Shown in pieces: positions 17,304 through 30,211 of a DNA stretch of 32,000 nucleotides. The notes below the pieces were generated by a model that saw only the letters and a program-made list of their open reading frames with translations, was not told the origin of the DNA and did not search any database. The DNA is from Cupriavidus necator. Lineage in GTDB: Bacteria > Pseudomonadota > Gammaproteobacteria > Burkholderiales > Burkholderiaceae. A program made the translations under genes and the position numbers. Where the stretch lies: contig NZ_CP066019.1 in assembly GCF_016127575.1 (NCBI RefSeq), positions 2,730,001 to 2,762,000 of the forward strand, read 5' to 3'. Each line of letters opens with the position of its first letter. Position 1 is the first letter of the stretch.

Positions 17304-19736
17304 TTACTGCGGCACCAACTCCAACCGCTCCCGGCTGGCCTTCTCCACCGCCTTGCGCGTATACACCAGCGGGAAATACTCCCCCTTGGCCCACAACGGC
17401 GCCAGGTCGCGGTAATGCGGGCTGGCGGGATTGCCCGATTGCCCCGGCGTGTTGATCACGCGCGAGGCATCCCAGTTGCCCACATCCAGCACCATGCGGA
17501 ACGACGCGCCCGCGGTCAGCCGGAAGTCGGTATTGCGGTAGCTGGTGTTCATCGGCGTGAAGGCCGAGCCGCCGATCGGACCGGCGTTGACATTGAACTG
17601 CTGGCGTTCCGCGTCGCTCAGGATCGGGTCCATCGGATGCGTGAACACGGCAGTGTGAAGCTTGCCCCATTGCCATGCGCGCGGGTCGGGGCCGAGCTTG
17701 CCTTCCGCTTCCGCCATGGCGGCCTTCAGCGATTCGAGCATCACCGCATTGCGGCGCTCCACCGGCATCCACGGACCGGGCTGCTCCAGCACCGCCACCA
17801 CGCGCGCGGCATCGCCGGCACCGACCAGGCGTGCGGCTTCGGGCGTCAGCGCGGCGCGCACCACGGCCTGGCGCAGGTGTTTGCTGAACCAGACTTCGAA
17901 CAATGCCGCTGCGGCGCTGTCGGCACGCTCGTTGCCGTCCCAGCCGCGCAGCAGGTCCAGGCCGCGGGCCAGTTGCGGGTCGTCGCTGCGCACGTCCCTC
18001 AGCAGCGCCACCACGCGCTGGGCCGGCAGCGAAACGGTGTCGTTCTGCCACGCCATCGAGTCCTGCGCCGAGCTGCGCGCATTGGCGCCCACCACGGCCT
18101 TGAGCCGGCGCGCGCGCGAGCTGTCGCTCCATTCATAGCCCACGCCAAGTTTCGCGGCCGGGTGCTCGGGCGGGATGTTGTTCTCGTTGGCGGTGACGAT
18201 GTAGCCTGGCGCGGGGTTGTAGGCCCACGGCAGCTCGTCCATGTTGCGGTAGCCGGCCCACTCGTAGCGGCCATCGCCCGCCACCGGCGTGAGGCCGTCC
18301 CAGTTGGGCCGCTTGACGGTCAGCCCGCCCGGGATCCAGCCGATATTGCCGCTGGTATCGGCATAGACCTGGTTCTCGCCGGGCGCGCCCCAGCGGTTCA
18401 TGGCGGCGCGGAACTGGTCCCAGTTGCGCGCGCGCATATAGTCCATCGAACCGAAGTACGGCGCCATGCCGTAGTCGAGCCACGCGGCGCGCAGCGCCCA
18501 CGCCTGCGCGCGGCCGGCATCGGCAACCAGCACCGGGCCGTGGCGCGTGAAGTCGATGGTGACCTTGCGCGGCGCGGACTCGCCCTTGACCACGATCTCT
18601 TCGGTGATGCTCTCCATCGGTTCCCAGCGGCCCTTGTACTTGTACTCATGCGGGTTGGCCGGATTGAGCTCGTAGCCGTACAGGTCTTCCTGGTCCATGT
18701 AGAAGCGCGTCAGGCCAAAGGCAATGGTGCCGTTGTGCCCGATCGAGATGCCGGGCAGGAACGGCTCGCCCGCGCCGATCACCGACATCCCCGGCGCGTT
18801 CAGGTGGCTGATATAGCGCAGGCTGGGCGCGCCGTGCGAGCGGTGCGGGTCGTTGGCCAGGATCGGGCGGCCGGTGGTGGTGCGCTTGCCGCCGATGACC
18901 CAGTTGTTCGATCCGAGGCTGCGGCCGGCGTCGCTGTTGGGGTCCACCAGTGCGTAGAGCTGGTCGAGCGGGATGCTGGCGGCCTGCGCATTGCCCCACG
19001 CCTCTTTCGGGAAGCGCGCTGCGGCGGTGGCCAGTTCGTAGGCGCGGCGCAGTTCGGCGGCGGGAACCGTGCAGGGGTCGATGCCGGGGCTGAGCCTGGG
19101 CTCGATCTGCGGGTCGAGTTCGCGGCGCAGCCAGTCGGCACGCGGGGCGTCCTGTTTGGCCTGGCAATAGAGCTGGGCGCGTTCGACTTCGCCGGTGAAG
19201 TTGAGCGTCAGGCCGTGGTGGCGGATGCGCACGATATCGTCGGCACGCCAGCGCGCAGGCTTGTAGTTGAGCTTGCGGAATTCCGGCGGCAGCAGCTCGG
19301 GCTTCTGCTCGGTCAGCGCCACATAGGCGTTCACCCCGGCCACGAAGGCCTCGGCCACGCGCTTGGCGTCGGAGCCATAGGCCAGCCATTCGCGGTACAT
19401 GTCGCCGCGGAACAGCACCGCGCGCGCCATGCGGTCGCCATCGGCATAGGCCGGGCCGAAGTCCCTGGCCATTTCGCCGAGTCCGCGCTTGCGCCACAGG
19501 TCGATCTGCCACAGGCGGTCGCGCGCGGCCATGAAGCCCTGCACGAAAAAGGCGTCGTAGAGCGTGCCGGCATAGATATGCGGCACGCCCCAGCGGTCGA
19601 CCAGCACGCTGGCGGGCTTTTCCAGGCCGGGCACGGCCAGCACGTTGTTGCGGACGGGGGCTTCGGCCATGGCGGCCGGGATGGTGGTGGCGAGCAGGGC
19701 CAGCGCAGCGGCCAGGCGGCGGGGGGTGCGTAACAT
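17304..19736 (-). CDS. Secreted Ntn-hydrolase of the penicillin acylase / acyl-homoserine-lactone acylase family (peptidase S45)
   Basis: Track ORF 17304-19838; start moved to ATG 19736 (GGAGA at 19741-19745 rc). Signal peptide MLRTPRRLAAALALLATTIPAAMA/EAP. Alpha-subunit strings VDRWGVPHIYA, FFVQGFMAARDRLWQIDLWRK. The predicted autoproteolytic site is G-SNNW (Ser codon 18911-18909), followed by TTGRPILANDPH. Confidence 0.9.
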   Translation of the reverse strand: MLRTPRRLAAALALLATTIPAAMAEAPVRNNVLAVPGLEKPASVLVDRWGVPHIYAGTLYDAFFVQGFMAARDRLWQIDLWRKRGLGEMARDFGPAYADGDRMARAVLFRGDMYREWLAYGSDAKRVAEAFVAGVNAYVALTEQKPELLPPEFRKLNYKPARWRADDIVRIRHHGLTLNFTGEVERAQLYCQAKQDAPRADWLRRELDPQIEPRLSPGIDPCTVPAAELRRAYELATAAARFPKEAWGNAQAASIPLDQLYALVDPNSDAGRSLGSNNWVIGGKRTTTGRPILANDPHRSHGAPSLRYISHLNAPGMSVIGAGEPFLPGISIGHNGTIAFGLTRFYMDQEDLYGYELNPANPHEYKYKGRWEPMESITEEIVVKGESAPRKVTIDFTRHGPVLVADAGRAQAWALRAAWLDYGMAPYFGSMDYMRARNWDQFRAAMNRWGAPGENQVYADTSGNIGWIPGGLTVKRPNWDGLTPVAGDGRYEWAGYRNMDELPWAYNPAPGYIVTANENNIPPEHPAAKLGVGYEWSDSSRARRLKAVVGANARSSAQDSMAWQNDTVSLPAQRVVALLRDVRSDDPQLARGLDLLRGWDGNERADSAAAALFEVWFSKHLRQAVVRAALTPEAARLVGAGDAARVVAVLEQPGPWMPVERRNAVMLESLKAAMAEAEGKLGPDPRAWQWGKLHTAVFTHPMDPILSDAERQQFNVNAGPIGGSAFTPMNTSYRNTDFRLTAGASFRMVLDVGNWDASRVINTPGQSGNPASPHYRDLAPLWAKGEYFPLVYTRKAVEKASRERLELVPQ

Positions 19737-19861: not shown

Positions 19862-21460
19862 TCAGTAGACGTCGCGCCGGTAGCGGCCGTCGTCGGCAAG
19901 CCGGCGCAGCGCGTCTGCGCCGAGGATCCCGGCCAGTGCGTCATGGACGCCGCCGGCCATGCCCTGCAGGCTGCCGCAGACATAGATGGCGGCGCCGTCC
20001 GCCACCCATTGGCGCACCGTATCGCCCTGCGCGCGCAAGGCGTCCTGCACGTAGCGCGGCGCGCCGCCGTCACGCGACCAGGCATGGTCCACGCGCTGCA
20101 GCGTGCCGTCGGCCTGCCATGCGGCCAGGTCCCCGGCAAAGAACGCATCATGCTGCGCCGAGCGCTCGCCGAACAGCAGCCAGTTGCGGCGCCGCCCGGC
20201 CGCGGCGCGGGCCTTGAGCTGGGCGCGCAGCCCGGCCAGCCCGGTGCCGTTGCCGACCAGGATCAGGGGCCGGTCATCGGCCGGCGGGTGGAAGCTGCGG
20301 TTGGTGCGGATGCGCAGCGCGATGCGGGTGCCCACGGCCGCGTGTTCGGTCAGCCAGCCGGAGGCCAGGCCCAGGCGGCCGTCGTCGTAGCGGGTCTGCC
20401 GCACCAGCAGTTCGAGTTGCCCGTCCCGCGGCAGCGAGGCGATCGAATATTCGCGGTGCGGCAGCGGCGGCAGCGTGTCCACCAGTTGCTGCGGCGGCAG
20501 GCCCTGCATCGCCGCGAAGTGCGCCTCAGGCAGCGGCATGCGTGTGCCCAGCGCCTCGGCGAGCGTGGCGTCGCGGCCGTCGCAGCGCACCGGTGTGGCG
20601 CCGTCGAGGCCAAGCCGCGCCAGCAGCCGTTCAACCTCGGCCGGCGCGTGGCACGGGCCGATCTCGGCGATGTCGCCGGCTTGCCAGTCCATTGCCGCAT
20701 CGTCCTGCGGCGCCAGCGACAGGTGGAATGCCGGCGCGCCCTGGCTGCCGGGGTTCAGATGACGGCGTTGCGCGAGCCGCCAGCTGTCATAGCGCGGGCG
20801 TTCCCAGTCGGCAATCTCCGCGCCGCCGCTCAGGGCCGACAGGTGGTTCTGCCAGTGGCGCAGTGCGCCGGCGTCGCCGTTGTCGACTTCGACCAGGTCA
20901 AAGAGCGGCTGCGCGCGGTGACGCTGCAGCCAGCCGTCGAGCGCGTGGCCGAAGGCGCAGAAGCGCGCGTAGCTGCTGTCGCCGAGCGCGAGGATGCCGT
21001 AGCGCAAGGACTGCAGGCCATCCGCGCCGGCCAGCAAGCGGCGCGCAAAACCGGACGCGCTGTCGGGGGCGTCGCCCTCGCCGGTGGTGCTGACCAGAAA
21101 CAGCGCCTGGCGGCATGCCTGCAGGCGCCGCGCATCGACATCGGCCAGCGACAGCAGTTGCACCGGCACCCCCGCGCCGTGCAGCGCGTTGGCGGTCTGC
21201 AACGCCAGTTGTTCGGCAAACCCGGTCTGCGAGGCGTAGGCAACCAGCGTCGCGCCCTCTTCCGTGCCAGCCAGTGCCACCACGCGCACGCGCCGCTGGC
21301 GATGGTGGGCAAGCACCGCGCTGCAGAAGCCCGCATAGGCGGCCACCACGCCGGCCGCCATAGCCATGCGCGACGGCCCCAGCACGGACAGCGCGACGCC
21401 GCCGGCAACGGCAAGCCAGCTTGCGCCGGCGATGGCGGACGGCATGGCCTTCGCGCTCAT
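19862..21460 (-). CDS. Membrane-tethered CysJ-like diflavin reductase (flavodoxin + FAD/NAD(P)H ferredoxin-reductase domains)
   Basis: Track ORF 19862-21619; start moved to ATG 21460, which overlaps the ApbE stop (ATGA, 21457-21460). Two N-terminal hydrophobic helices (AIAGASWLAVAGGVALSVL, AMAAGVVAAYAGFCSAVLA). Flavodoxin-like strings TLVAYASQTGFAEQLA, LFLVSTTGEGDAPD, YGILALGDSSY. FAD motif REYSIAS. NAD(P)H motif LILVGNGTGLAGLRA. C-terminal YRRDVY. Confidence 0.85.
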   Translation of the reverse strand: MSAKAMPSAIAGASWLAVAGGVALSVLGPSRMAMAAGVVAAYAGFCSAVLAHHRQRRVRVVALAGTEEGATLVAYASQTGFAEQLALQTANALHGAGVPVQLLSLADVDARRLQACRQALFLVSTTGEGDAPDSASGFARRLLAGADGLQSLRYGILALGDSSYARFCAFGHALDGWLQRHRAQPLFDLVEVDNGDAGALRHWQNHLSALSGGAEIADWERPRYDSWRLAQRRHLNPGSQGAPAFHLSLAPQDDAAMDWQAGDIAEIGPCHAPAEVERLLARLGLDGATPVRCDGRDATLAEALGTRMPLPEAHFAAMQGLPPQQLVDTLPPLPHREYSIASLPRDGQLELLVRQTRYDDGRLGLASGWLTEHAAVGTRIALRIRTNRSFHPPADDRPLILVGNGTGLAGLRAQLKARAAAGRRRNWLLFGERSAQHDAFFAGDLAAWQADGTLQRVDHAWSRDGGAPRYVQDALRAQGDTVRQWVADGAAIYVCGSLQGMAGGVHDALAGILGADALRRLADDGRYRRDVY

Positions 21461-22473
21461 GCCAGCATCGCGGCAAAGGCCGGGGACAGCTGTTCGTCGA
21501 AGCCGCCCGGCGTGCGCACCAGGAAGCGCGCGGCAATGCCGTGGCGGCGCGCGTGCGCCATGCCTGCCTGCGGGCCCAGCACGGTCAGCGCGGTGGACAG
21601 CGCATCGGCCAGCATGCACTGCGCGTGGATGACCGTGACCGAGGCCAGCGCGTGGCTGGCCGGATAGCCGGTGCGCGGATCGATGGTATGGGCGTAGCGG
21701 CGACCGTCACTGTCGAAATAGCGGCGATAGTCGCCGGAAGTGGCGACGGACAGGCCGTGCAGTGCCACCAGCGTCTGCCCCGCGGCATCGCTGCCCAGCC
21801 CCGGCGGGGCCTCCAGCGCGACCCACCACGGCATGCCGTCGGGCTTGACGCCATGGCCGCGCAGTTCGCCGCCGATCTCCGTCAAGTGGTGGTCAAGGCC
21901 CTGCTCACACAGGTAGCCTGCCACCGCGTCGACGGCAAAGCCCTTGGCGATGGCGCAGAAGTCCAGCGACACGCCGCCCGGCTGCCAGGCGCGCCGGCCC
22001 GTGGCATCGACTTCGATGCGGGCCCAGCCGCAGCGGCCGCGCGTGGCCTGCACCGCGTCTGGCGACGGCGGCGCGGTGCGCGCCGGTGCTGGGCCGAAGC
22101 CCCACAGGTCGACCAGCGGACCGGCGCTCGGGTCATAGGCGCCACCGCTGTCGCGCGCCACCAGCAGCGCGCATTGCAGCACCATGAAGCAGTCTTCAGG
22201 CAGCGCGTGCCAGCTGCCGGGTGCCGCGCCGTTGAAACGGCTCAGATCGGAATCCGCTTCCCAGTTGCTCATCTGCGCGATCACGCCATCTAGAACGGCC
22301 TGGATGCCGGCGGCGATGGCGTCCGCATCCGTGGCCGGCGGCAGCAGTGCCGCCACCGACCAGGTCGTGCCCATGGTCGCGCCGCCCCAGCGCTGCAGCC
22401 GCATATCGGCTGCGGGCGGCTGTGGGGGCGCGGTCAGCGCAACAGGTACCAGGACGCGGTTCAAACCCGGCAA
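21457..22473 (-). CDS. apbE: ApbE-family FAD:protein FMN transferase (flavinyl transferase)
   Basis: The longest ORF starts at TTG 22473, 5 nt after the DUF4198 stop; ATG 22404 is an alternative. Family motifs: TMGTTWSV, GAYDPSAGPLVDLWGFGP, DFCAIAKGFAVDAV, VATSGDYRRYF, YAHTIDPRTGYP, ADALSTAL. No obvious signal peptide is present. Confidence 0.85.
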   Translation of the reverse strand: MPGLNRVLVPVALTAPPQPPAADMRLQRWGGATMGTTWSVAALLPPATDADAIAAGIQAVLDGVIAQMSNWEADSDLSRFNGAAPGSWHALPEDCFMVLQCALLVARDSGGAYDPSAGPLVDLWGFGPAPARTAPPSPDAVQATRGRCGWARIEVDATGRRAWQPGGVSLDFCAIAKGFAVDAVAGYLCEQGLDHHLTEIGGELRGHGVKPDGMPWWVALEAPPGLGSDAAGQTLVALHGLSVATSGDYRRYFDSDGRRYAHTIDPRTGYPASHALASVTVIHAQCMLADALSTALTVLGPQAGMAHARRHGIAARFLVRTPGGFDEQLSPAFAAMLA

Positions 22474-22478
22474 CCGGC

Positions 22479-23318
22479 TTATTGCGGCAGCACCTCGACC
22501 GTCACCGCATAGACGGCACGGCGCGATTTGGCCTGCTTGAAGGTGGTCTTGTCATCCTTCACCTCGGCTTCCATCCAGTACATGCCTGGGGCCGGCCACT
22601 TGACGCTGAACTTGCCGTCGGCGTCGGTGGTGGCGCTGAACTCCTGCAGCTGGTCGCGGTAGCGGATGCCGCCCGGCACCACCGAGACCTTCAGGTTGCT
22701 GGCGGGCTTGCCGTCGAGCAGCATGCGGAAGCTGGCGGTGTCGCCCGCGACCAGGTCGTTCGGGTGCGTGATCGGGGCCAGTTCCAGGCCGCGGCCGGCG
22801 GTGCGCAGGCCCTTGTCGCTGGGCTTGCCGGCGGTGATGAAGGATTCGATGCGGCCTTCGGCCTGGGTGGCCTGCAGGTCCTGCGCATTGGCCGGGACTT
22901 CCTTGGCGAAGTTCTCGGCCGAACCCCGCCAGCGCTTGGCCTGGCCGTCGACCTTGTAGCTGGCGAACAGGCCGTTGTTGACCACCGCCACGCGGTACGT
23001 GCCGGGCTGGGTCAGGTGCAGGTCGAAGGTGCTGCGGTACTTGCCGGTGGCAGCGTTCTCGGCCTTGACGGCGCTGCCATCGGGCGCGGTCACCTGCAGG
23101 TTGTCGAGCCGCATCGGCACGTGCTCGAAATAGAACAGGTCGTTGGAGACAGCGGCGTCCACGGTCACCCACGGATCGCTGCCTGACAGCACGGTAGCCG
23201 ACGGCAGCAGCCACTGGCGGTGCGCGTGCGCGGCCAGCGGCGCCAGGGCGGCCAGGGCGAGCACGGCCACGCGGGTGGCGATGCGGGTAGATGCGGCGGA
23301 CATAAGGGAAGGTTTCAT
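22479..23318 (-). CDS. Periplasmic DUF4198 domain protein (family related to Ni/Co-uptake periplasmic components)
   Basis: ATG 23318 with GGAG upstream. Signal peptide ...LALAALAPLAAHA/HRQWLLPS. Beta-rich with DUF4198-like strings: DAAVSNDLFYFEH, TFDLHLTQPGTYRVAVVNNG, GLELAPITHPNDLVAGDTASFRMLLDGKP, DADGKFSVKWPAPGMYWMEA. Confidence 0.8.
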   Translation of the reverse strand: MKPSLMSAASTRIATRVAVLALAALAPLAAHAHRQWLLPSATVLSGSDPWVTVDAAVSNDLFYFEHVPMRLDNLQVTAPDGSAVKAENAATGKYRSTFDLHLTQPGTYRVAVVNNGLFASYKVDGQAKRWRGSAENFAKEVPANAQDLQATQAEGRIESFITAGKPSDKGLRTAGRGLELAPITHPNDLVAGDTASFRMLLDGKPASNLKVSVVPGGIRYRDQLQEFSATTDADGKFSVKWPAPGMYWMEAEVKDDKTTFKQAKSRRAVYAVTVEVLPQ

Positions 23319-23336
23319 CGTCTGGCTCCGGAAGGA

Positions 23337-23861
23337 TTACGGCTTCAGTTCGACGGTCACGCCGCCGAGTTCGTGTTCGCCCTTGGCGCGGGCGGTCTGT
23401 GCGGCTTGCGGCGGCCACGTGAACGGCACGCGCAGCAGCTCGCGCCCGCCCACTTCACGCGCGGCTTCCACCACCAGCTGGTAGTTGCCGGCGGGCAGCT
23501 TGCCCAGCGGCGCCTTGTCGTCGCTGAAGCTCACGCCGTGCTCGCCCGGCGCGCGCGTGGCGCCGGAGATGCCGTCGGCCGGCATGTGCAGGTCGCGGCC
23601 GGCCTTGCGCCACCACTGGCGCATGTCCTTGAGCCACTTGGTGCCTTCGCCGTCCCTGAGCTTGCCGTCGTACCAGACCGCCAGGGTCTGCACCGGGCTC
23701 TGGTCGGCGCGCTCGACCCACATCGCCACATAGGGGCGGTGGTACTCGGCCACGGTCAGGCGCGGGATTTCGACCTTGACGTTCAGGTCCGCGGCCAGCG
23801 CGGGGCCGGCCAGGGGAACCGCGGCCATGCCGGTCAGGGTGACGGTGAGCAGTCGGCGCAT
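23337..23861 (-). CDS. Periplasmic DUF2271 domain protein with a predicted ApbE flavinylation site
   Basis: ATG 23861. Signal peptide MRRLLTVTLTGMAAVPLAGPALA/ADL with a twin-Arg at positions 2-3. DUF2271-like strings: EYHRPYVAMWVE, TLAVWYDGK, WLKDMRQWWRK, LPAGNYQLVVEAAREVGGRELL. Motif DGISGAT at residues 96-102 (nt 23576-23556). Confidence 0.85.
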   Translation of the reverse strand: MRRLLTVTLTGMAAVPLAGPALAADLNVKVEIPRLTVAEYHRPYVAMWVERADQSPVQTLAVWYDGKLRDGEGTKWLKDMRQWWRKAGRDLHMPADGISGATRAPGEHGVSFSDDKAPLGKLPAGNYQLVVEAAREVGGRELLRVPFTWPPQAAQTARAKGEHELGGVTVELKP

Positions 23862-23916
23862 ATCGGAGAAACCTCGTCAGTGGGATGCAGGAAGGAAAAC
23901 GGTTGGAACGGTTGAC

Positions 23917-24573
23917 TCAATGGATAAACAGGAGCGCCAGCAGCACCGGGACCACCAGCCCCAGCCCCACCAGCGGCCAGGTCCCCACGCGCCCGGCCGC
24001 ATGCAGCTTGAGCAGGAACAGGCCGGTCACGCTGAAGACCAGGCATGCCAGCGCGAACACATCCAGGAACAGGCTCCACGCGGCGCCGGTGTTGCGGCCC
24101 TTGTGCAGGTCGTTCAGGTAGGAGATGGCGCCGCGCGTGGTTTTCTCGTACTGGGCTTCGCCGCTGTCGAGTTCCAGGCTGACCCAGGCGTCGCCGCCCG
24201 GACGCGGCAGCGCCACGTAGATCTCGTCGGCGGACCATTCGGCCTCGCGCCCGCTGGCGTCGATGTCCAGCGCCTGCGCCAGCCAGTCGGCCAGCACCGG
24301 CGGCACCGGCGCCTTCTTTTCACGCCCCTGGGCATCGCCCGCCGGCGCTTCGGCCCGCACCTTGTCGAGCACGCGCGTGGGCATGGTGGCGTGGCGCGTC
24401 TCGACCGCGGGCCTGGCCTCGATCTGTGCGGCGTGGTTGAGCGTGAAGCCGGTAACGGCAAACATCAGCATCCCGATCAGGCAGATCGCGGAACTGATCC
24501 AGTGCCACTGGTGGAGATGCTTGAGCCAGAAGGCACGCCGCTGTTGGCCGGAGGCCGGCTGGGTTTCGGTCAT
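23917..24573 (-). CDS. PepSY-associated TM helix (PepSY_TM / PiuB/FoxB-like) inner-membrane protein, short 3-TM form
   Basis: Track ORF 23917-24600 starts at a TTG; I prefer ATG 24573 (MTETQPASGQQRRAFWLKHLHQWHWISSAICLIGMLMFAVTGFTLNH). Second family motif ISYLNDLHKGRNTGAAWSLFLDVFALACLVFSVTGLFLL, plus a C-terminal TM. Confidence 0.8.
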   Translation of the reverse strand: MTETQPASGQQRRAFWLKHLHQWHWISSAICLIGMLMFAVTGFTLNHAAQIEARPAVETRHATMPTRVLDKVRAEAPAGDAQGREKKAPVPPVLADWLAQALDIDASGREAEWSADEIYVALPRPGGDAWVSLELDSGEAQYEKTTRGAISYLNDLHKGRNTGAAWSLFLDVFALACLVFSVTGLFLLKLHAAGRVGTWPLVGLGLVVPVLLALLFIH

Positions 24574-24673
24574 TGCGGTTGGTCGGCGGGCGCGGCCCAA
24601 GTGGCGGCCCGGTCTTGCCTTGTGTACGGATAGCTGGAGCGTCCCTTGCGCGCATCACACGGGCTCAGGCGTG

Positions 24674-24691
24674 CCATTGTCTGCACAATGG
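24674..24691. promoter_or_regulatory. Perfect 18-bp palindrome CCATTGT-CTGC-ACAATGG upstream of the PepSY_TM operon
   Basis: 7+4+7 perfect inverted repeat about 100 nt upstream of ATG 24573, between the Fur-like box and the coding start. It could be a second operator or a leader hairpin. Confidence 0.3.
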
Positions 24692-24708
24692 TTGGCGGAA
24701 GAGAGAAG

Positions 24709-24727
24709 GATAATCGTTCGCATTTGA
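24709..24727 (-). promoter_or_regulatory. Fur-box-like AT-rich site
   Basis: GATAATCGTTCGCATTTGA matches the 19-bp Fur consensus GATAATGATAATCATTATC at 11 of 19 positions, with the first 6 perfect. It sits in the only AT-rich patch upstream of the operon, about 136 nt from ATG 24573. It overlaps an ATTTGAAAT near-palindrome flanked by TCGCA direct repeats. Confidence 0.4.
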
Positions 24728-24899
24728 AATCGCAAACGGTCCGGGACGGCGCTGGATTACAGCGCATTACAACGTGAAGCAGCGGGACGGATCACTTGTC
24801 CGCGGCGCTCTGGTTCGCTGGAAGAGATGTGCAACGCACAAGCAAGACGGCACATGTAAGCCAATCAACCATATCACCCGAAGGGGTGAAATTACCCAG

Positions 24900-24927
24900 T
24901 CAAGTTAGTTGCCTCCTGCGCCGTTAA
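24900..24927 (+). promoter_or_regulatory. Sigma-28 (FliA)-type promoter for the chemoreceptor gene
   Basis: TCAAGTTA-N12-GCCGTTAA compared with the consensus TAAAGTTT-N11-GCCGATAA: 6/8 and 7/8 matches, spacer one nt long. About 105 nt upstream of ATG 25033. Confidence 0.5.
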
Positions 24928-25032
24928 GGCGATGACTCACACGCATGCGACAGGCGCCACCGATGCATGACGCCGCCGGCGTGTCGCCGACAAGAAAACG
25001 CGCAGAGCGCGGAATATGGAGGAGTGGAAGCA

Positions 25033-26589
25033 ATGCTGCACAACCTGAGCCTGAAGAAGAAGCTGTTATTGCCGCTGGTGCTGAGCTGGATCTGCCTGCT
25101 CGGCATCACGCTGTGGAACGCGTGGCAGATCCGCTCGCTACGCATGGAAGAGCGGCGCCTGGACCTGGCCCACGTCACCGACACCGCATTCTCGGTGGTG
25201 GCCGAGTACGAGGCGCTGGCCAAGGCCGGCAAGCTGACGCAGGACGAGGCCAGGAATCAGGCCATCGAGCGCGTGCGCGCGATGCGCTTCGGCAGCGATG
25301 GCTATTTCACGCTGATGCGCTCGGACACCGTGGTATTGATGCACCCGTTCAAGCCGGAGATGAACGGCAAGGCCATGGAAGGCACCAAGGACCCCAACGG
25401 CGTCTACCTCTTCCGCGAAATCGCCGGGATCGGCAAAGGGCCTGGCAAGGGCTTCGTCGAGTACCTGTGGCCCAAGCCCGGCGCGGATGCGCCGCAGCCC
25501 AAGCTGAGCTACGTGGCCAACTTCCGCCCGTGGGACTGGAACTTCATCGCGGGCCTGTACCTGGACGACATCGAGGCGGCGTTCCGCGCCGAACTGATGA
25601 AGGCGTTCGGCATCCTGCTGGGGGTTGGCTTGCTGATGTCGCTGGTGATGGTGCGCGTGGCGGCCAGCCTGCAGCGCCAGCTGGGCGGCGAACCTGCCAC
25701 CACGGCGCACATCGCCGGGCGCATTGCCGAAGGCGACCTCGGCAGCCAGGTAGAGGTGCGCCCCGGCGACGAGCACAGCGTCCTCTATGCGATGCATCGC
25801 ATGCAGGCGCGCCTGACCGGCGCAATCGGCAGCATCCGCGGCTCGGCCGATTCGATCGCGGGCGCGGCCAAGCAGATCGCCGCGGGCAACGCCGACCTGT
25901 CGCGCCGCAGCGAAGAACAGGCCGCGTCGCTGCAGGAAACCGCCGCCAGCATGGAGCAGCTCACCAGCACCGTGCGCCAGAGCGCCGAGAACGCGCGCCA
26001 GGCCAGCCACCTGGCCGAAGGCGCATCGGACATCGCGGTGCGCGGCGGCACCATCGTCAGCCAGGTGGTGGACACCATGGGCGAGATCAAGAATGCCTCG
26101 GGCAAGGTGGTCGACATCATCGGCGTGATCGAGGGCATTGCCTTCCAGACCAACATCCTCGCGCTCAATGCGGCCGTGGAAGCGGCACGTGCCGGCGACC
26201 AGGGCCGCGGCTTCGCGGTGGTGGCCGGCGAGGTGCGCACGCTGGCGCAGCGCAGCGCCACCGCTGCAAAGGAGATCAAGGCGCTGATCGGCAACTCGGC
26301 GCAGCGCGTGGATGACGGCGCGGTGCTGGTTGAAAGCGCGGGCAAGGCGATGGACGAGATCGTCGGCGCGGTCAAGCGCGTGACCGACCTGATGGCCGAG
26401 ATGCGCGCGGCTACCGAGGAGCAGACCGGCGGCATCGAGCAGGTCAACCAGGCGGTGTCGCAGATGGACCAGATGGCGCAGCAGAACGCCGCGCTGGTGG
26501 AAGAAGCCGCGGCCGCCGCCGCCTCGCTGGAAGACCAGGCCGATGCGCTGCATCACGCGGTCGGCCAGTTCCGGCTGGCGCAGGCCTGA
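25033..26589 (+). CDS. Methyl-accepting chemotaxis protein with a periplasmic sCache_2-type sensor, HAMP and MCP signalling domains
   Basis: Track ORF 24967-26589; start moved to ATG 25033 (GGAGGAG 25017-25023). TM1 [18 protein letters not shown]. Cache strings [58 protein letters not shown]. Signalling hairpin [41 protein letters not shown]. Confidence 0.9.
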
Positions 26590-26711: not shown

Positions 26712-26963
26712 ATGATGGCATTCATTGGCACCGTGTTCGTTGGCCTTATCGTCGGCCTGATCGCCAGGGCGGTCAAACCCGGCGACGACAAGATGGGCTG
26801 GATCATGACCATCGTCCTGGGCGTGCTGGGCTCGCTGGCTGCAGGCTACGTCGGCCGCGCCATGGGCTGGTACCTGCCGGGCCAGCCGGCCGGCTGGATT
26901 GCGTCGGTGATTGGCGCGATCGTGCTGCTGGTGATCTACGGCATGGTCCGGCGCAAGGGCTGA
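26712..26963 (+). CDS. GlsB/YeaQ/YmgE-family (transglycosylase-associated) small stress membrane protein
   Basis: Track ORF 26640-26963; start moved to ATG 26712 (GGGAGAG upstream). MMAFIGTVFVGLIVGLIARAVKPGDDKMGWIMTIVLGVLGSLAAGYVGRAMGWY is a family-typical sequence. Confidence 0.85.
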   Translation: MMAFIGTVFVGLIVGLIARAVKPGDDKMGWIMTIVLGVLGSLAAGYVGRAMGWYLPGQPAGWIASVIGAIVLLVIYGMVRRKG

Positions 26964-29900
26964 CTGGCGCGGCGCACGCCGGCGGCGTCCTGCGCGTCGG
27001 CCAGGGCCGGTACCTCGGGCGCGGCAGGCGCCTGCGGTACCGCGGCAGTATTGGGCGTGCCGCTGCGCGCCGGCCCCTGGAGGCTCTGGAGGCCCTGGGC
27101 CAGCGTGGCGCCAGGCACGGCGTCGGCCGGCGTGGCCATGGCGGGCACGCGCGGCGTACGCAGGCCGGGCGCGGCATCATGGCAACGCAGCAGCGGGCGG
27201 TCGCCACCCGGCGCCATCGCCGACACCTGCGGCGCGACCGCCCGCAGGACCCGCACCGCCAGCGCGCTGGTAAAGCTGTAGCGCGCCGCATAGGGTTCTC
27301 TCACATTGACCACTACGGTGCCGAAGAAGCGCTCGCCCAGCGTGAACACAAAGGTGGCCGAGCGGTTCACCGAGCGCGACGAAATCAGCCGCCCGCCCGG
27401 CCCATAGACCTGGTAGCGCTGGTCGCCGGTGCCGGTCTTGCCCGCCACCGCCAGCGTGGCGCCGTCGCGCCCGGGCACCGTGAAGGCGCCGCGGATCGAC
27501 CTGGCGGTGCCGCGCTCCACCACATCCAGCATCGAGCGCCGCGCCAGTTCGGCCACTTCGGCCGGCAATACCCGCTTGCCCGGACCCGGCTGCAGCACGT
27601 AGCGCGTGGCGTACGGCGTGCCGTCGGCAAACGCCAGGCTGCGCACCGCCGTGTTCTGCGTGACTACGCCGCCCGCCAGCAGGATGCCGGCCAGCTCCGC
27701 CAGCGCGGCCGGCCGGTCGCCCGCGGCACCGATGGCGCTGCCGTACGACGGCGTCAGGGAATCGAACGGATAGCCCAGCCGCTGCCAGCGCCGCGCAATC
27801 CGCGTGAAGGCGTCTTGCTCCAGCAGCGTGCGGATGCGGTTGTCCTGGCCGGCCTTGCTGCGCGTGCGGAACAGCCATTTGTACACTTCCTGGCGCTCGG
27901 CGGTGCTGGCCTTCAGGATCTCTGCCAGCGTCGCGTCGGGGTGCTGGTCGAGGTACTCCACCATCCACAGTTCCAGCGGATGCACCCGTGACAGGTAGCC
28001 CCGGTCGTTCAGGTTGAACTTGTCCTTGCCGTACTTGCGGTACAGCGCGCTCAGGTCTTCGCCGGCCAGCTGCTTGTCGCCCAGGCGGGCGCGCATGATG
28101 CGGATGTAGCTGTCCTCGTCCAGGTGCGGCCGCGCGCTCAGCAGCGTCACCGACATGCGCACCGCATTCAGGTGCGGCGTAGTCATGCGCACGCGGCCCA
28201 GCAGCGTGGCCAGGCGCAGCTCAGAACTCTTGCCGCGGTAGCGCTGGTAGAAGTTCGTCATGTAGGCGCTGCCCTCCTGGTCGGCAAAGCGCTCCAGGTA
28301 GGCGCGCCGGCCGGGCGCGTCGCGGTCATCGAAGAGCTCGCCAATGTCCGGGCTGGCGTGGAAGGTCTCGTAGCGCACGATGTCGCGCATCATGCGGATG
28401 AAGACCAGGTTGACCGAGTGCTGGAATGCGGTCCGCACCGTCAGGTTGCGCATGCCCGATTCACGCTCGAAATTGCTGAAGCTCTGCAGGCCGCCGCCGG
28501 TGTAGAAGGCTTCGCCGGCGCCGCCGGAGTACTTGCGCTCCATGGCGGCATCGAGCATGGCCATCAGCTCGCGCTCCGCGGGCTTGCGCGCCTTAAGCAA
28601 GTAATCGACCGCCCAGTGGCTGAGCGCGTCCTGGCGTGCCAGCGGCACCGCGGCCAGCTGTGCGCTGGTCATGCCGGCATAGCGCGCGTGCAGCTCGCTG
28701 ATGATCTCCAGGTAGGTCACCAGCGTGCGCAGCTTGGCCGTGGAACCCAGGTTCAGGCGCGCGCCGCTGTTGATATCAAAGGGCTGGTCGATATTGTCGG
28801 CCTGGATCCGCACCACGCTGGCATTGCCCACGCGCTCATACAGCGTGAAGCTCGTCATCAGTTTCGACGGGTCGTCGTGGTCGCGCAGCAGGTTGTGGCC
28901 GTACAGGCCCATGGCGCGCGCATCGGCCTTGTTGTTCACGCGCTGCAGCGTTTCGGTGACGATGCGCTGCGCCTCGCGGTTGACGGTGCTGTCCACGGTC
29001 AGGTCGAGCCGGTCCATGTCGTAGCGGCTCTCCACCCCGGTGAGCCGGGTGATATCGGCACGCACCCGGTTGACGGCCTTGCGCGTGACAAAGGGCTCCT
29101 GCGGCGGGCTCTGGGGTGGCGCGGCCTTGTCCAGCGGCTGCGCCAGCGCTACGTCGCGCAGCTCGGCGGTGATGACGTTGTTGGCCGCCAGCAGGCGCAG
29201 GTAGCTGCCGGTCAGCGCATCCAGGTTGGTGTCATCGCGGCGCAGGTGGTAGGACGGGCGGCGCTGCGAGATGATCAGCGACAGTGCGCGCTTGAAGGCC
29301 TGCGCCTGGCGCGGCTCGGGCGCGTGCTGGTCCAGTTCCTTGAGCAGCCGGTTGACCTCGCCGAAGTCCTCGCCATACCAGACCCAGAGCCCATCGCCGA
29401 TGCCGTTGATCTCGCCGAAGCCGGCGCGCGCCGACAGCGGCACCGTGTTCAGGTAGTCGACCACGATGCGCTCGCGCGCGCGCTGGGTGTCGGGGCCGTC
29501 CAGGTAGGCACGCAGCGACGCCGACGCCATCTGGCGGAATTTCTCCGGGATCGATGCGGTGCGCCCTTCGGGCGAGTGCCGGTATTTCTCGATCTGCGTG
29601 GCCAGCGTGCTGCCGCCGGGCGCGTCATGCGACTTGTCGGCAAGCCGGATCACCTGGTCGAGCACCGCGCGCGACAGCCGGCGCCAGTCCAGCGCCGGGT
29701 TCATATTGGGGTATTCCGGGTTGAGCAGGCCCTGGTTCTCGACATAGAGCAAGGCGCTCACCAGCAGCGGCGGCACCGTGCCGAAGTCCGGGTACTGGCG
29801 CTGCGGATAACGCTCGAACGCCAGCGTCAGCCCGTTGCAGTCGCGCAGCAGCAGGCCCGCCTGGTTCTTCTCGCGGTAGGGCGTGAACAGGCCTTCGTCG

Positions 29901-30211
29901 ATCAGCCGCACCATCTCGGGCGACATGCGCGCCTGTTCGGCGGGAACGTAGCCGCGCTGCTCCAGCCGCTGCGCGAACAGCGGCACCTGGCCGTAGCCCA
30001 TGCGGGCGTCATAGGGCCCGGAATGCGGGAAACGGATGCTGTCGCTGGCGCCCGGCAGGATCTCGAATGTCAGCCGCTGCCCCAGGCTGCCGATCAGCCG
30101 CGCCTGCAAGTGCGAGTTGTGCACTTCGCTTGCGACAAAGCTGTACACAACATAGGCGCCCCCACCAAGGGCGACCGCCAAGCCAGCGAAGATCCAGCCA
30201 CGACGCGACAC
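26936..30211 (-). CDS. Atypical 1091-aa class-A penicillin-binding-protein-like protein (GT51 transglycosylase + transpeptidase motifs, large insertions)
   Basis: GTG 30211 (GGGAAG upstream). N-terminal anchor WIFAGLAVALGGGAYVVYSFV. GT51-like strings LLYVENQG, GGSTLATQ, DYLNTVPL. Transpeptidase triad STAK (Ser490, codon 28744-28742), SVN (599-601), KTG (925-927). Pro/Ala-rich C-terminal tail. The 3' end overlaps the GlsB gene antisense by 28 nt. Confidence 0.8.
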   Translation of the reverse strand: MSRRGWIFAGLAVALGGGAYVVYSFVASEVHNSHLQARLIGSLGQRLTFEILPGASDSIRFPHSGPYDARMGYGQVPLFAQRLEQRGYVPAEQARMSPEMVRLIDEGLFTPYREKNQAGLLLRDCNGLTLAFERYPQRQYPDFGTVPPLLVSALLYVENQGLLNPEYPNMNPALDWRRLSRAVLDQVIRLADKSHDAPGGSTLATQIEKYRHSPEGRTASIPEKFRQMASASLRAYLDGPDTQRARERIVVDYLNTVPLSARAGFGEINGIGDGLWVWYGEDFGEVNRLLKELDQHAPEPRQAQAFKRALSLIISQRRPSYHLRRDDTNLDALTGSYLRLLAANNVITAELRDVALAQPLDKAAPPQSPPQEPFVTRKAVNRVRADITRLTGVESRYDMDRLDLTVDSTVNREAQRIVTETLQRVNNKADARAMGLYGHNLLRDHDDPSKLMTSFTLYERVGNASVVRIQADNIDQPFDINSGARLNLGSTAKLRTLVTYLEIISELHARYAGMTSAQLAAVPLARQDALSHWAVDYLLKARKPAERELMAMLDAAMERKYSGGAGEAFYTGGGLQSFSNFERESGMRNLTVRTAFQHSVNLVFIRMMRDIVRYETFHASPDIGELFDDRDAPGRRAYLERFADQEGSAYMTNFYQRYRGKSSELRLATLLGRVRMTTPHLNAVRMSVTLLSARPHLDEDSYIRIMRARLGDKQLAGEDLSALYRKYGKDKFNLNDRGYLSRVHPLELWMVEYLDQHPDATLAEILKASTAERQEVYKWLFRTRSKAGQDNRIRTLLEQDAFTRIARRWQRLGYPFDSLTPSYGSAIGAAGDRPAALAELAGILLAGGVVTQNTAVRSLAFADGTPYATRYVLQPGPGKRVLPAEVAELARRSMLDVVERGTARSIRGAFTVPGRDGATLAVAGKTGTGDQRYQVYGPGGRLISSRSVNRSATFVFTLGERFFGTVVVNVREPYAARYSFTSALAVRVLRAVAPQVSAMAPGGDRPLLRCHDAAPGLRTPRVPAMATPADAVPGATLAQGLQSLQGPARSGTPNTAAVPQAPAAPEVPALADAQDAAGVRRASQPLRRTMP

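Follow-up and report, generated by a model that had tools for sequence, protein, structure and literature searches.

A five-gene operon of a Cupriavidus chromosome is probably a copy of the PepSY-like system for Fur-controlled periplasmic iron reduction

The locus analysed is a 32-kb stretch of Cupriavidus chromosomal DNA (∼68% GC), referred to here as the window; all coordinates are window positions. The list of open reading frames (ORFs), combined with Pfam searches, revealed a five-gene operon on the minus strand (19862-24573) encoding, in 5′ to 3′ order, a PepSY_TM_like_2 protein, a DUF2271 protein, a DUF4198 protein, an ApbE-family transferase and a diflavin reductase. This operon is likely to be the Cupriavidus copy of the published PepSY-like system, acting as a Fur-repressed conduit that reduces periplasmic Fe(III) under iron starvation. 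The gene set and the model for the electron path have already been published, and the window locus is a further copy of a known system. The evidence obtained from the window comprises domain identity, motif conservation, synteny and an operator-like sequence. The features in question, listed in the direction of transcription, are the following:

24703-24727, minus strand: putative Fur-box-like operator (consensus match; core AATGCGAACGATTATC at 24709-24724)
23917-24573, minus strand: PepSY_TM_like_2 inner-membrane protein, 218 aa (PF16357, E=4e-84; PF03929, E=8.7e-12)
23337-23861, minus strand: DUF2271 protein, predicted to be secreted, 174 aa (PF10029, E=1.5e-54)
22479-23318, minus strand: DUF4198 secreted protein, 279 aa (PF10670, E=1.3e-62)
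21457-22473, minus strand: ApbE-family FAD:protein FMN transferase (FAD, flavin adenine dinucleotide; FMN, flavin mononucleotide), 338 aa, or 335 aa from the TTG at 22464 (PF02424, E=7.4e-84)
19862-21460, minus strand: membrane-anchored CysJ-like diflavin NAD(P)H reductase, 532 aa (Flavodoxin_1, E=2.8e-24; NAD_binding_1, E=1.5e-6)

These five identities had been proposed in an earlier interpretation of the same DNA made from its letters and ORFs (the sequence-only reading), and profile hidden Markov model searches against Pfam and NCBIfam, together with structure alignments, bore all of them out. The junctions, which that reading had given as gaps of 55, 18 and 5 nt plus an ATGA overlap between genes of the same strand, were read again on the sequence with the same outcome. 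The PepSY and DUF2271 genes are 55 nt apart, the DUF2271 and DUF4198 genes 18 nt apart, and the stop codon of the ApbE gene overlaps the start codon of the reductase gene (ATGA, 21457-21460). The gap between the DUF4198 and ApbE genes is 5 nt if the latter starts at the TTG at 22473, and 14 nt if it starts at a second TTG at 22464; annotated ApbE homologues begin at the position equivalent to this second TTG. The longest ORF for the PepSY protein spans 23917-24600, the likely start being the ATG at 24573, which matches the 218 aa of the homologues at NCBI. The closest relatives of the locus lie on chromosome 2 of Cupriavidus sp. TMH.W2 (PepSY protein 93% identical) and in C. consociatus; the flanking genes are also common to the C. 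consociatus locus.

Méheust et al. (2021, eLife 10:e66878; PMC8238504) used the term PepSY-like system for a PF03929/PF16357 protein encoded in a flavinylation-associated gene cluster. Their 3220 PepSY-like clusters included 2833 with DUF2271, 1500 with DUF4198 and 1077 in which the PepSY-like protein itself carries an NAD-binding domain. They proposed that NAD(P)H drives electrons across the membrane for iron reduction and assimilation, and showed experimentally, with a protein pair from Amantichitinum ursilacus, that ApbE flavinylates DUF2271 at the threonine of an [S/T]GA[S/T] motif (PMC8238504). The window locus fits this definition, with a PF16357/PF03929 gene that adjoins genes for ApbE and for a DUF2271 protein containing the motif. 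It also resembles the published system in its DUF4198 and NAD-binding partners and in the electron path they suggest. The two differ in that the NAD-binding domain, so often fused to the PepSY-like protein, is found in the window on a separate diflavin protein with a transmembrane (TM) anchor. Further, flavinylation is the only step of the published system to have been shown experimentally, and this was in A. ursilacus, another organism.

A pattern scan of one genome per species yielded 583 confirmed PepSY relatives, of which the best 80 loci (L001-L080) were retained. They come from Burkholderiales, Xanthomonadales/Lysobacterales, Caulobacterales, Sphingomonadales and Hyphomicrobiales (Alpha-, Beta- and Gammaproteobacteria); having been picked by PepSY similarity, they yield conservation figures that apply to this subfamily only. 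Gene order was counted in the 73 of the best 80 loci in which the sequence beyond the PepSY start extends for 5.2 kb or more downstream. All five genes, with order and strand preserved, were present in 63 of these 73, covering three proteobacterial classes, so that the conservation of the neighbourhood, a check suggested with the sequence-only reading, was confirmed. The ApbE gene was missing from a single locus (Azoarcus). The loci lacking the reductase gene (L032, L048, L049, L059, L067, L072, L075, L076 and L080) kept the PepSY-DUF2271-DUF4198-ApbE arrangement, and in those from Sphingopyxis genes for a PiuC-like oxygenase and a TonB-dependent receptor follow. The commonest neighbours overall were TonB-dependent receptors, found no more than 4.5 kb away in 32 of the 80 loci, and PKHD-type, PiuC-like 2-oxoglutarate-Fe(II) oxygenases (16 of 80). 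In a Silvimonas relative, the same operon is preceded by a TonB receptor gene and a PiuC-like gene.

The Fur-box-like site, which had been placed about 136 nt upstream of the operon, was located at 24703-24727, ∼130 nt upstream of the PepSY ATG. The Fur consensus GATAATGATAATCATTATC found its best match on either strand of the whole window at this site (24703-24721, 14 of 19 positions); scores of at least 14 in the 393-nt intergenic region had a probability of 0.002 in 2000 dinucleotide-preserving shuffles. A pattern derived from the family, AATGNGAA(N2-3)ATTNTC, occurred only once in the window, at 24709-24724. Among the orthologous upstream regions, 61 of 80 scored at least 12/19; for 300-nt windows drawn at random from these loci, the share was 8%. 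A k-mer count that made no use of the consensus detected the 8-mer AATGAGAA, a Fur-box core, in 38 of the 80 upstream regions and in 6 of 78 controls (for each locus, the 200 nt richest in A and T outside this region). On sequence grounds, Fur control is thus well supported for the family and moderately so for the window copy, and the operon is probably Fur-repressed.

An imperfect palindrome, CGTTTGCGATTTCAAATGCGAACG (24715-24738, minus strand), overlaps the Fur-box-like site. The scanner called it terminator-like; it is more likely to belong to an operator, perhaps as a further half-site or as a site bound by a different regulator. It was one of four terminator-like matches, a number no higher than expected by chance, two of which fell within the PepSY coding sequence. 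The k-mer count also returned a second over-represented set of 8-mers (GGATTCTA, AGAATCCG and GAATCCGC), seen in 12-14 of the 80 regions, against 0-1 of the controls. A promoter scan detected no sigma-70 consensus promoter, and the window gave no hits in Rfam or tRNA scans.

The same five genes have been studied in Caulobacter crescentus. There, expression of CC_3059-CC_3063 rises 12- to 51-fold when iron is limiting or fur is deleted (PMC3751524), and transposon insertions in CCNA_03155-03159 lower fitness in ethylenediaminetetraacetic acid (EDTA; PMC12004947). The Caulobacter operon has the same genes in the same order, its reductase being called a sulfite-reductase-like flavoprotein, and a Caulobacter locus of the set, L040, aligns with the window gene for gene at 51-62% identity. 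In this alphaproteobacterial operon, however, the Fur box lies ∼40 nt from the start codon, not ∼130 nt as in the window, and the L040 reductase apparently has one TM anchor where that of the window has two. An iron role for the operon is proposed because of the Fur boxes, the Caulobacter data on iron, Fur and EDTA, and the siderophore-type neighbours.

The first protein of the operon had been described as a short PepSY_TM protein with three TM helices, and this description holds. Hydropathy placed TM segments at residues 26-44, 170-188 and 199-217, and an AlphaFold2 (AF2) model (predicted local distance difference test score, pLDDT, 82) showed helices at 7-52, 164-191 and 196-217, TM1 and TM2 being separated by a periplasmic alpha/beta domain of ∼110 residues. 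Pfam returned no match to PF03413 (PepSY domain). Six histidines are conserved across 81 sequences, all at membrane edges: H24, H157 and H218 (100%), H191 (96%), H21 (94%) and H47 (84%). In the HLHQWHW motif to which the sequence-only reading had drawn attention, H24 is therefore invariant and H21 nearly so, while H19 is variable. The positively charged N-terminus was taken as inside, which would place H24 and H191 at the membrane edge facing the cytoplasm, and H47, H157 and H218 at the one facing the periplasm. C31 and C177, in TM1 and TM2, are conserved at 91-93%.

FoxB of Pseudomonas aeruginosa (PDB 7ABW), a PepSY_TM siderophore reductase, holds two b-type haems with bis-His ligation and reduces ferrioxamine; by analogy with it, the window protein is predicted to be a di-haem transmembrane electron carrier. 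It belongs to the PF03929 superfamily, as do FoxB and the other PepSY_TM siderophore reductases FpvG and HiuB. Its conserved histidines at both membrane edges recall the layout of the haem ligands in FoxB, and in both proteins one domain faces the periplasm and iron uptake is implicated. FoxB differs in having four TM helices, not three, and two PepSY domains, and in lacking a flavinylated partner or a known dedicated NAD(P)H reductase. With HiuB and CrpH, the reach of the PepSY_TM family also covers xenosiderophores and copper-dependent respiration. Vibrio cholerae VciB is cited as an inner-membrane protein with iron reductase activity that promotes Fe(II) uptake by way of Fe(III) reduction; no other characterised PepSY-like homologue is cited for the subfamily. 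Unlike the window protein, it is not associated with ApbE, DUF2271 or DUF4198 (PMC8238504). In a Foldseek search with the AF2 model, FoxB (7abw_A) ranked third (E=0.018, TM-score 0.23, 17% identity) and was the sole membrane redox protein near the top. This similarity is too weak to prove a common fold and was not used as such.

In the reductase, hydropathy predicted TM helices at residues 9-27 and 32-50, followed by the sequence HHRQRR and then by the flavodoxin, FAD and NAD(P)H domains. FAD_binding_1 scored 26.3 bits, under the Pfam cut-off of 32.3. The Escherichia coli CysJ structures 6efv and 1ddg aligned over residues 69-532 (6efv: 69-309 and 314-532), spanning the FMN, FAD and NADPH regions, and the motifs YASQTG, REYSIAS, GNGTGLAG and the C-terminal RDVY fall within this alignment. 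At least one TM helix plus an Arg-rich stretch was present in 54 of the 57 reductase relatives with a locatable flavodoxin motif. The TM anchor and its Arg-rich side therefore place the flavin domains in the cytoplasm. The sequence-only reading was right in seeing a CysJ-like reductase with two TM helices in the window; the pair is nonetheless a Cupriavidus trait, most relatives having one. The protein was rejected as the assimilatory sulfite reductase CysJ itself: it scored 227.7 bits against the CysJ equivalog model TIGR01931 (cut-off 668), and has an N-terminal TM hairpin and another genomic context. Its anchor (residues 32-50) carries a recurrent A-Y-x-x-[FL]-C motif near the cytoplasmic end. 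This motif and the PepSY cysteines could mark a helix-helix interface, in which the anchor of the reductase would serve as the fourth helix of a FoxB-like bundle.

The DUF2271 protein contains the flavinylation motif DGISGAT at residues 96-102, and the pattern D-G-[VIL]-[ST]-[GSAT]-[AP]-[TS] was found in all 80 DUF2271 relatives; Thr102 is the predicted FMN-carrying residue. Its N-terminus (MRR, a hydrophobic stretch, then ALA|AD) resembles a cleavable signal, as judged, like all signal-peptide calls made here, from hydropathy heuristics. By the same heuristics, a classical Sec-type signal was present on DUF2271 in all loci examined, with a twin arginine in a minority. The ApbE-type motif claimed for this protein was thus recovered, and its N-terminus looks like the signal peptide also claimed. 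A search of PDB sequences with DUF2271 gave no useful match. No conserved [ST]GA[ST] was found in the PepSY protein, DUF4198 or the reductase. The ApbE protein aligned over residues 22-334 to 5mgy (E=9e-70), and also to 6nxi and 3pnd. The catalytic His is kept in the sequence RYAHTIDP and corresponds to the residue mutated in 6nxj.

The signal peptide of the DUF4198 protein, expected from the sequence-only reading, ends in AHA and is followed by HRQW, so that the mature protein would begin with His33. The pattern AxA|H-x-x-W was found in 73 of 78 relatives, and in the alignment His33 was conserved at 100%, H66 at 96%, H185 at 86% and H31 at 44%. Two of the five parts of the operon had been listed as domains of unknown function, which no longer fully applies to DUF4198, metal binding having been reported for members characterised in 2025 (PMC12663993, PMC12537917). 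Neisseria gonorrhoeae Zcp (PDB 9MHI series) binds Zn via three histidines (H29, H31 and H142) and took up Cu, Co and Ni in crystal soaks, in which Fe gave no density; Ideonella sakaiensis IsDUF4198 binds Ni via its N-terminal His, and in 79% of the family the mature protein begins with a His. The window protein belongs to the same Pfam family, is secreted and shares this mature N-terminal His with both. In sequence it is weakly similar to the Zcp structures 9mhi/9mhk (E=2.7e-4). It contains an H-x-H pair (H31 and H33), and in this weak alignment Zcp H142 falls on a non-His position. DUF4198 is thus predicted to be a periplasmic metal-binding protein. The settings differ: Zcp and IsDUF4198 stand alone or belong to Ni/Zn systems that are Zur-regulated or NikR-associated, whereas the window protein, in which the third Zcp ligand is apparently not kept, is part of a redox operon fronted by a Fur box.

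The redox cofactors, the substrate and the way in which electrons flow are inferred from these components. The tethered reductase, to judge from its domains, would take electrons from NAD(P)H and pass them to FAD and then FMN at the cytoplasmic face. They would next enter the PepSY_TM_like_2 protein, in which two b-type haems may be held by the edge histidines as in FoxB. The periplasmic haem would reduce the FMN covalently bound to Thr102 of DUF2271, to which the ApbE of the operon would have attached it, and the flavin of DUF2271 would in turn reduce Fe(III), free or chelated. DUF4198 may bind the metal, as substrate or as product, and hand it on; this is the least certain step. A chain running from NAD(P)H through the diflavin protein, PepSY and DUF2271 to a metal had been put forward in the sequence-only reading; it is the same as the published model and fits the Caulobacter Fur and EDTA data.

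Several observations weigh against this interpretation. The Fur site of the window, at 14/19, is more degenerate than in most relatives. The PepSY protein has one TM helix fewer than FoxB, the fold match between the two is weak, and searches of PDB sequences with the PepSY protein, either as a single sequence or as a 12-sequence profile, gave no useful match. Nine of the 73 loci (Sphingopyxis and Hyphomicrobiales) have no reductase, so the electron input is swappable; in these alphaproteobacterial loci the input to PepSY must therefore differ. No gene for an Fe(II) transporter, a TonB-dependent receptor or a PiuC-like protein is adjacent to the operon within the window, and uptake would therefore rely on genes elsewhere in the genome. 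No recognisable signal peptide was detected in ApbE by the hydropathy heuristics, though its substrate DUF2271 is predicted to be secreted. No paper reporting reconstitution of the full electron chain was found in the searchable literature. On this last point, the claim of the sequence-only reading that the assembly is biochemically uncharacterised as a unit is overstated: the system has been described and named, and flavinylation of its DUF2271 has been shown. Finally, the DUF4198 proteins characterised to date bind Zn, Ni, Co and Cu, with Fe giving no density in Zcp, and Fe as the metal held by DUF4198 is the weakest step of the scheme.

This weak step leaves some room for the same machinery to work on another metal, either reducing Cu(II) to Cu(I) or acting on Ni or Zn, with DUF4198 as a specific metal-binding partner. 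The metals bound by Zcp and by IsDUF4198 (the latter through an N-terminal His chelate) point this way, as does the invariant mature N-terminal His of the window protein, which is typical of such sites. In addition, the PepSY_TM protein CrpH, thought to act on copper, supports haem-copper oxidase function. The motifs that recur upstream of the orthologues, however, are Fur boxes, not Zur, NikR or copper-regulator boxes. Further, the identical Caulobacter operon responds to iron and Fur and contributes to fitness under the iron-limiting conditions imposed by EDTA, siderophore-type TonB receptors and PiuC-like oxygenases neighbour the operon in relatives, and the third Zcp ligand, H142, is not aligned with a His in the window DUF4198, although the alignment is weak. 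A metal other than iron is therefore considered improbable.

A still more distant alternative is that the conduit supplies periplasmic reducing power for a non-metal role, such as envelope protein repair (as MsrQ does) or the reduction of an organic substrate, its regulation by iron being secondary. Flavinylated extracytosolic proteins do serve varied redox roles, and PepSY-like and MsrQ-like modules co-occur in 108 clusters (PMC8238504); the absence of a linked iron transporter from the window would also be compatible with such a role. Yet no terminal oxidoreductase (e.g. MsrP-like) is present in the operon or conserved beside it, the only conserved extra periplasmic partner, DUF4198, belongs to a metal-binding family, and the Caulobacter genetics and regulation indicate iron. 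This alternative is thus very unlikely, and periplasmic Fe(III) reduction under Fur control is retained as the probable function of the operon.

The lack of a recognisable signal on ApbE, which the sequence-only reading overlooked, bears on where flavinylation takes place. Bacterial ApbEs are typically periplasmic lipoproteins. The window ApbE has only about 21-30 residues ahead of the TMGT motif at which its domain starts, and these have no convincing hydrophobic core. Its maximum hydropathy over 11 residues was 1.66, and the median across 71 relatives was 1.16, the corresponding figures for the signals of DUF2271 and DUF4198 at these loci being 1.98 and 2.35, respectively. In the window itself the DUF2271 signal reached 1.73, so hydropathy alone is not decisive here. 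A clear signal peptide or lipobox was found in only seven of the 71 relatives. In the AF2 model of ApbE (pLDDT 92), residues 1-20 scored 81-85, and residues 3-5 formed a docked beta-strand. An N-terminal M-x-R-V-L-(I/V)-P motif is nearly invariant in a 33-sequence alignment (the window N-terminus lies at 22402-22473, minus strand), and such conservation, as seen in the alignment, is unusual for a signal peptide.

Two accounts of this signal-less ApbE, and of that in most orthologous operons, may be offered together: it could be cytoplasmic and flavinylate the unfolded DUF2271 precursor before Sec export, or it could be carried into the periplasm non-classically by means of its RVL(I/V)P motif. 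Both are put forward tentatively, and the pair is regarded as doubtful; failure of the signal heuristics is a further possible account. A second, cytoplasmic flavinylation target was ruled out by the absence of a conserved [ST]GA[ST] from the other operon proteins. Tat export of pre-flavinylated DUF2271 was rejected as a general answer, the twin arginine being confined to Cupriavidus and a few other loci while most DUF2271 proteins begin with MRK, MQVRY or similar. Méheust et al. needed a signal peptide on just one target gene per cluster (PMC8238504), and the localisation of ApbE was therefore not addressed there. Were flavinylation to take place before export, there would be no need for a periplasmic supply of FAD, a problem for periplasmic flavinylation; either reading of ApbE, if true, would alter a single step in the published model of a system that occurs in thousands of genomes.

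Three other genes of the window were noted:

24967-26589, plus strand: sCache_2 methyl-accepting chemotaxis gene, divergent from and upstream of the operon
17304-19736, minus strand: secreted penicillin-amidase-family (Ntn) acylase, 810 aa, with a good ribosome binding site, 125 nt downstream of the reductase gene
26936-30211, minus strand: PBP1C-like protein, 1091 aa, with a transglycosylase domain and a weak transpeptidase match

The divergent intergenic region between the operon and the chemoreceptor gene is unusually long, at about 390-460 nt (24574-25032). The PBP1C-like gene adjoins the chemoreceptor gene in the closest Cupriavidus relatives too, and is unrelated to the operon. The acylase gene might be co-transcribed with the operon, being on the same strand with no terminator between them. 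It was not accepted as a sixth member, however: just five loci, all from Cupriavidus, have it next to the operon, and even L001, the closest relative, lacks it. Its identification as PvdQ was rejected on a score of 56 bits against a cut-off of 950.

For Gram-negative bacteria, the reductive release of iron in the periplasm is an important way of obtaining this metal, and one that is less well understood than siderophore transport. The operon family that would serve it is present in thousands of genomes, and what remains of interest at that level is the biochemistry of the whole chain, the true metal of DUF4198 and the site at which the signal-less ApbE acts. For the window, the gain is chiefly one of annotation: genes that would otherwise carry DUF, 'thiamine biosynthesis lipoprotein' and 'sulfite reductase' labels may be read as a single, probably Fur-controlled, iron-reducing conduit.

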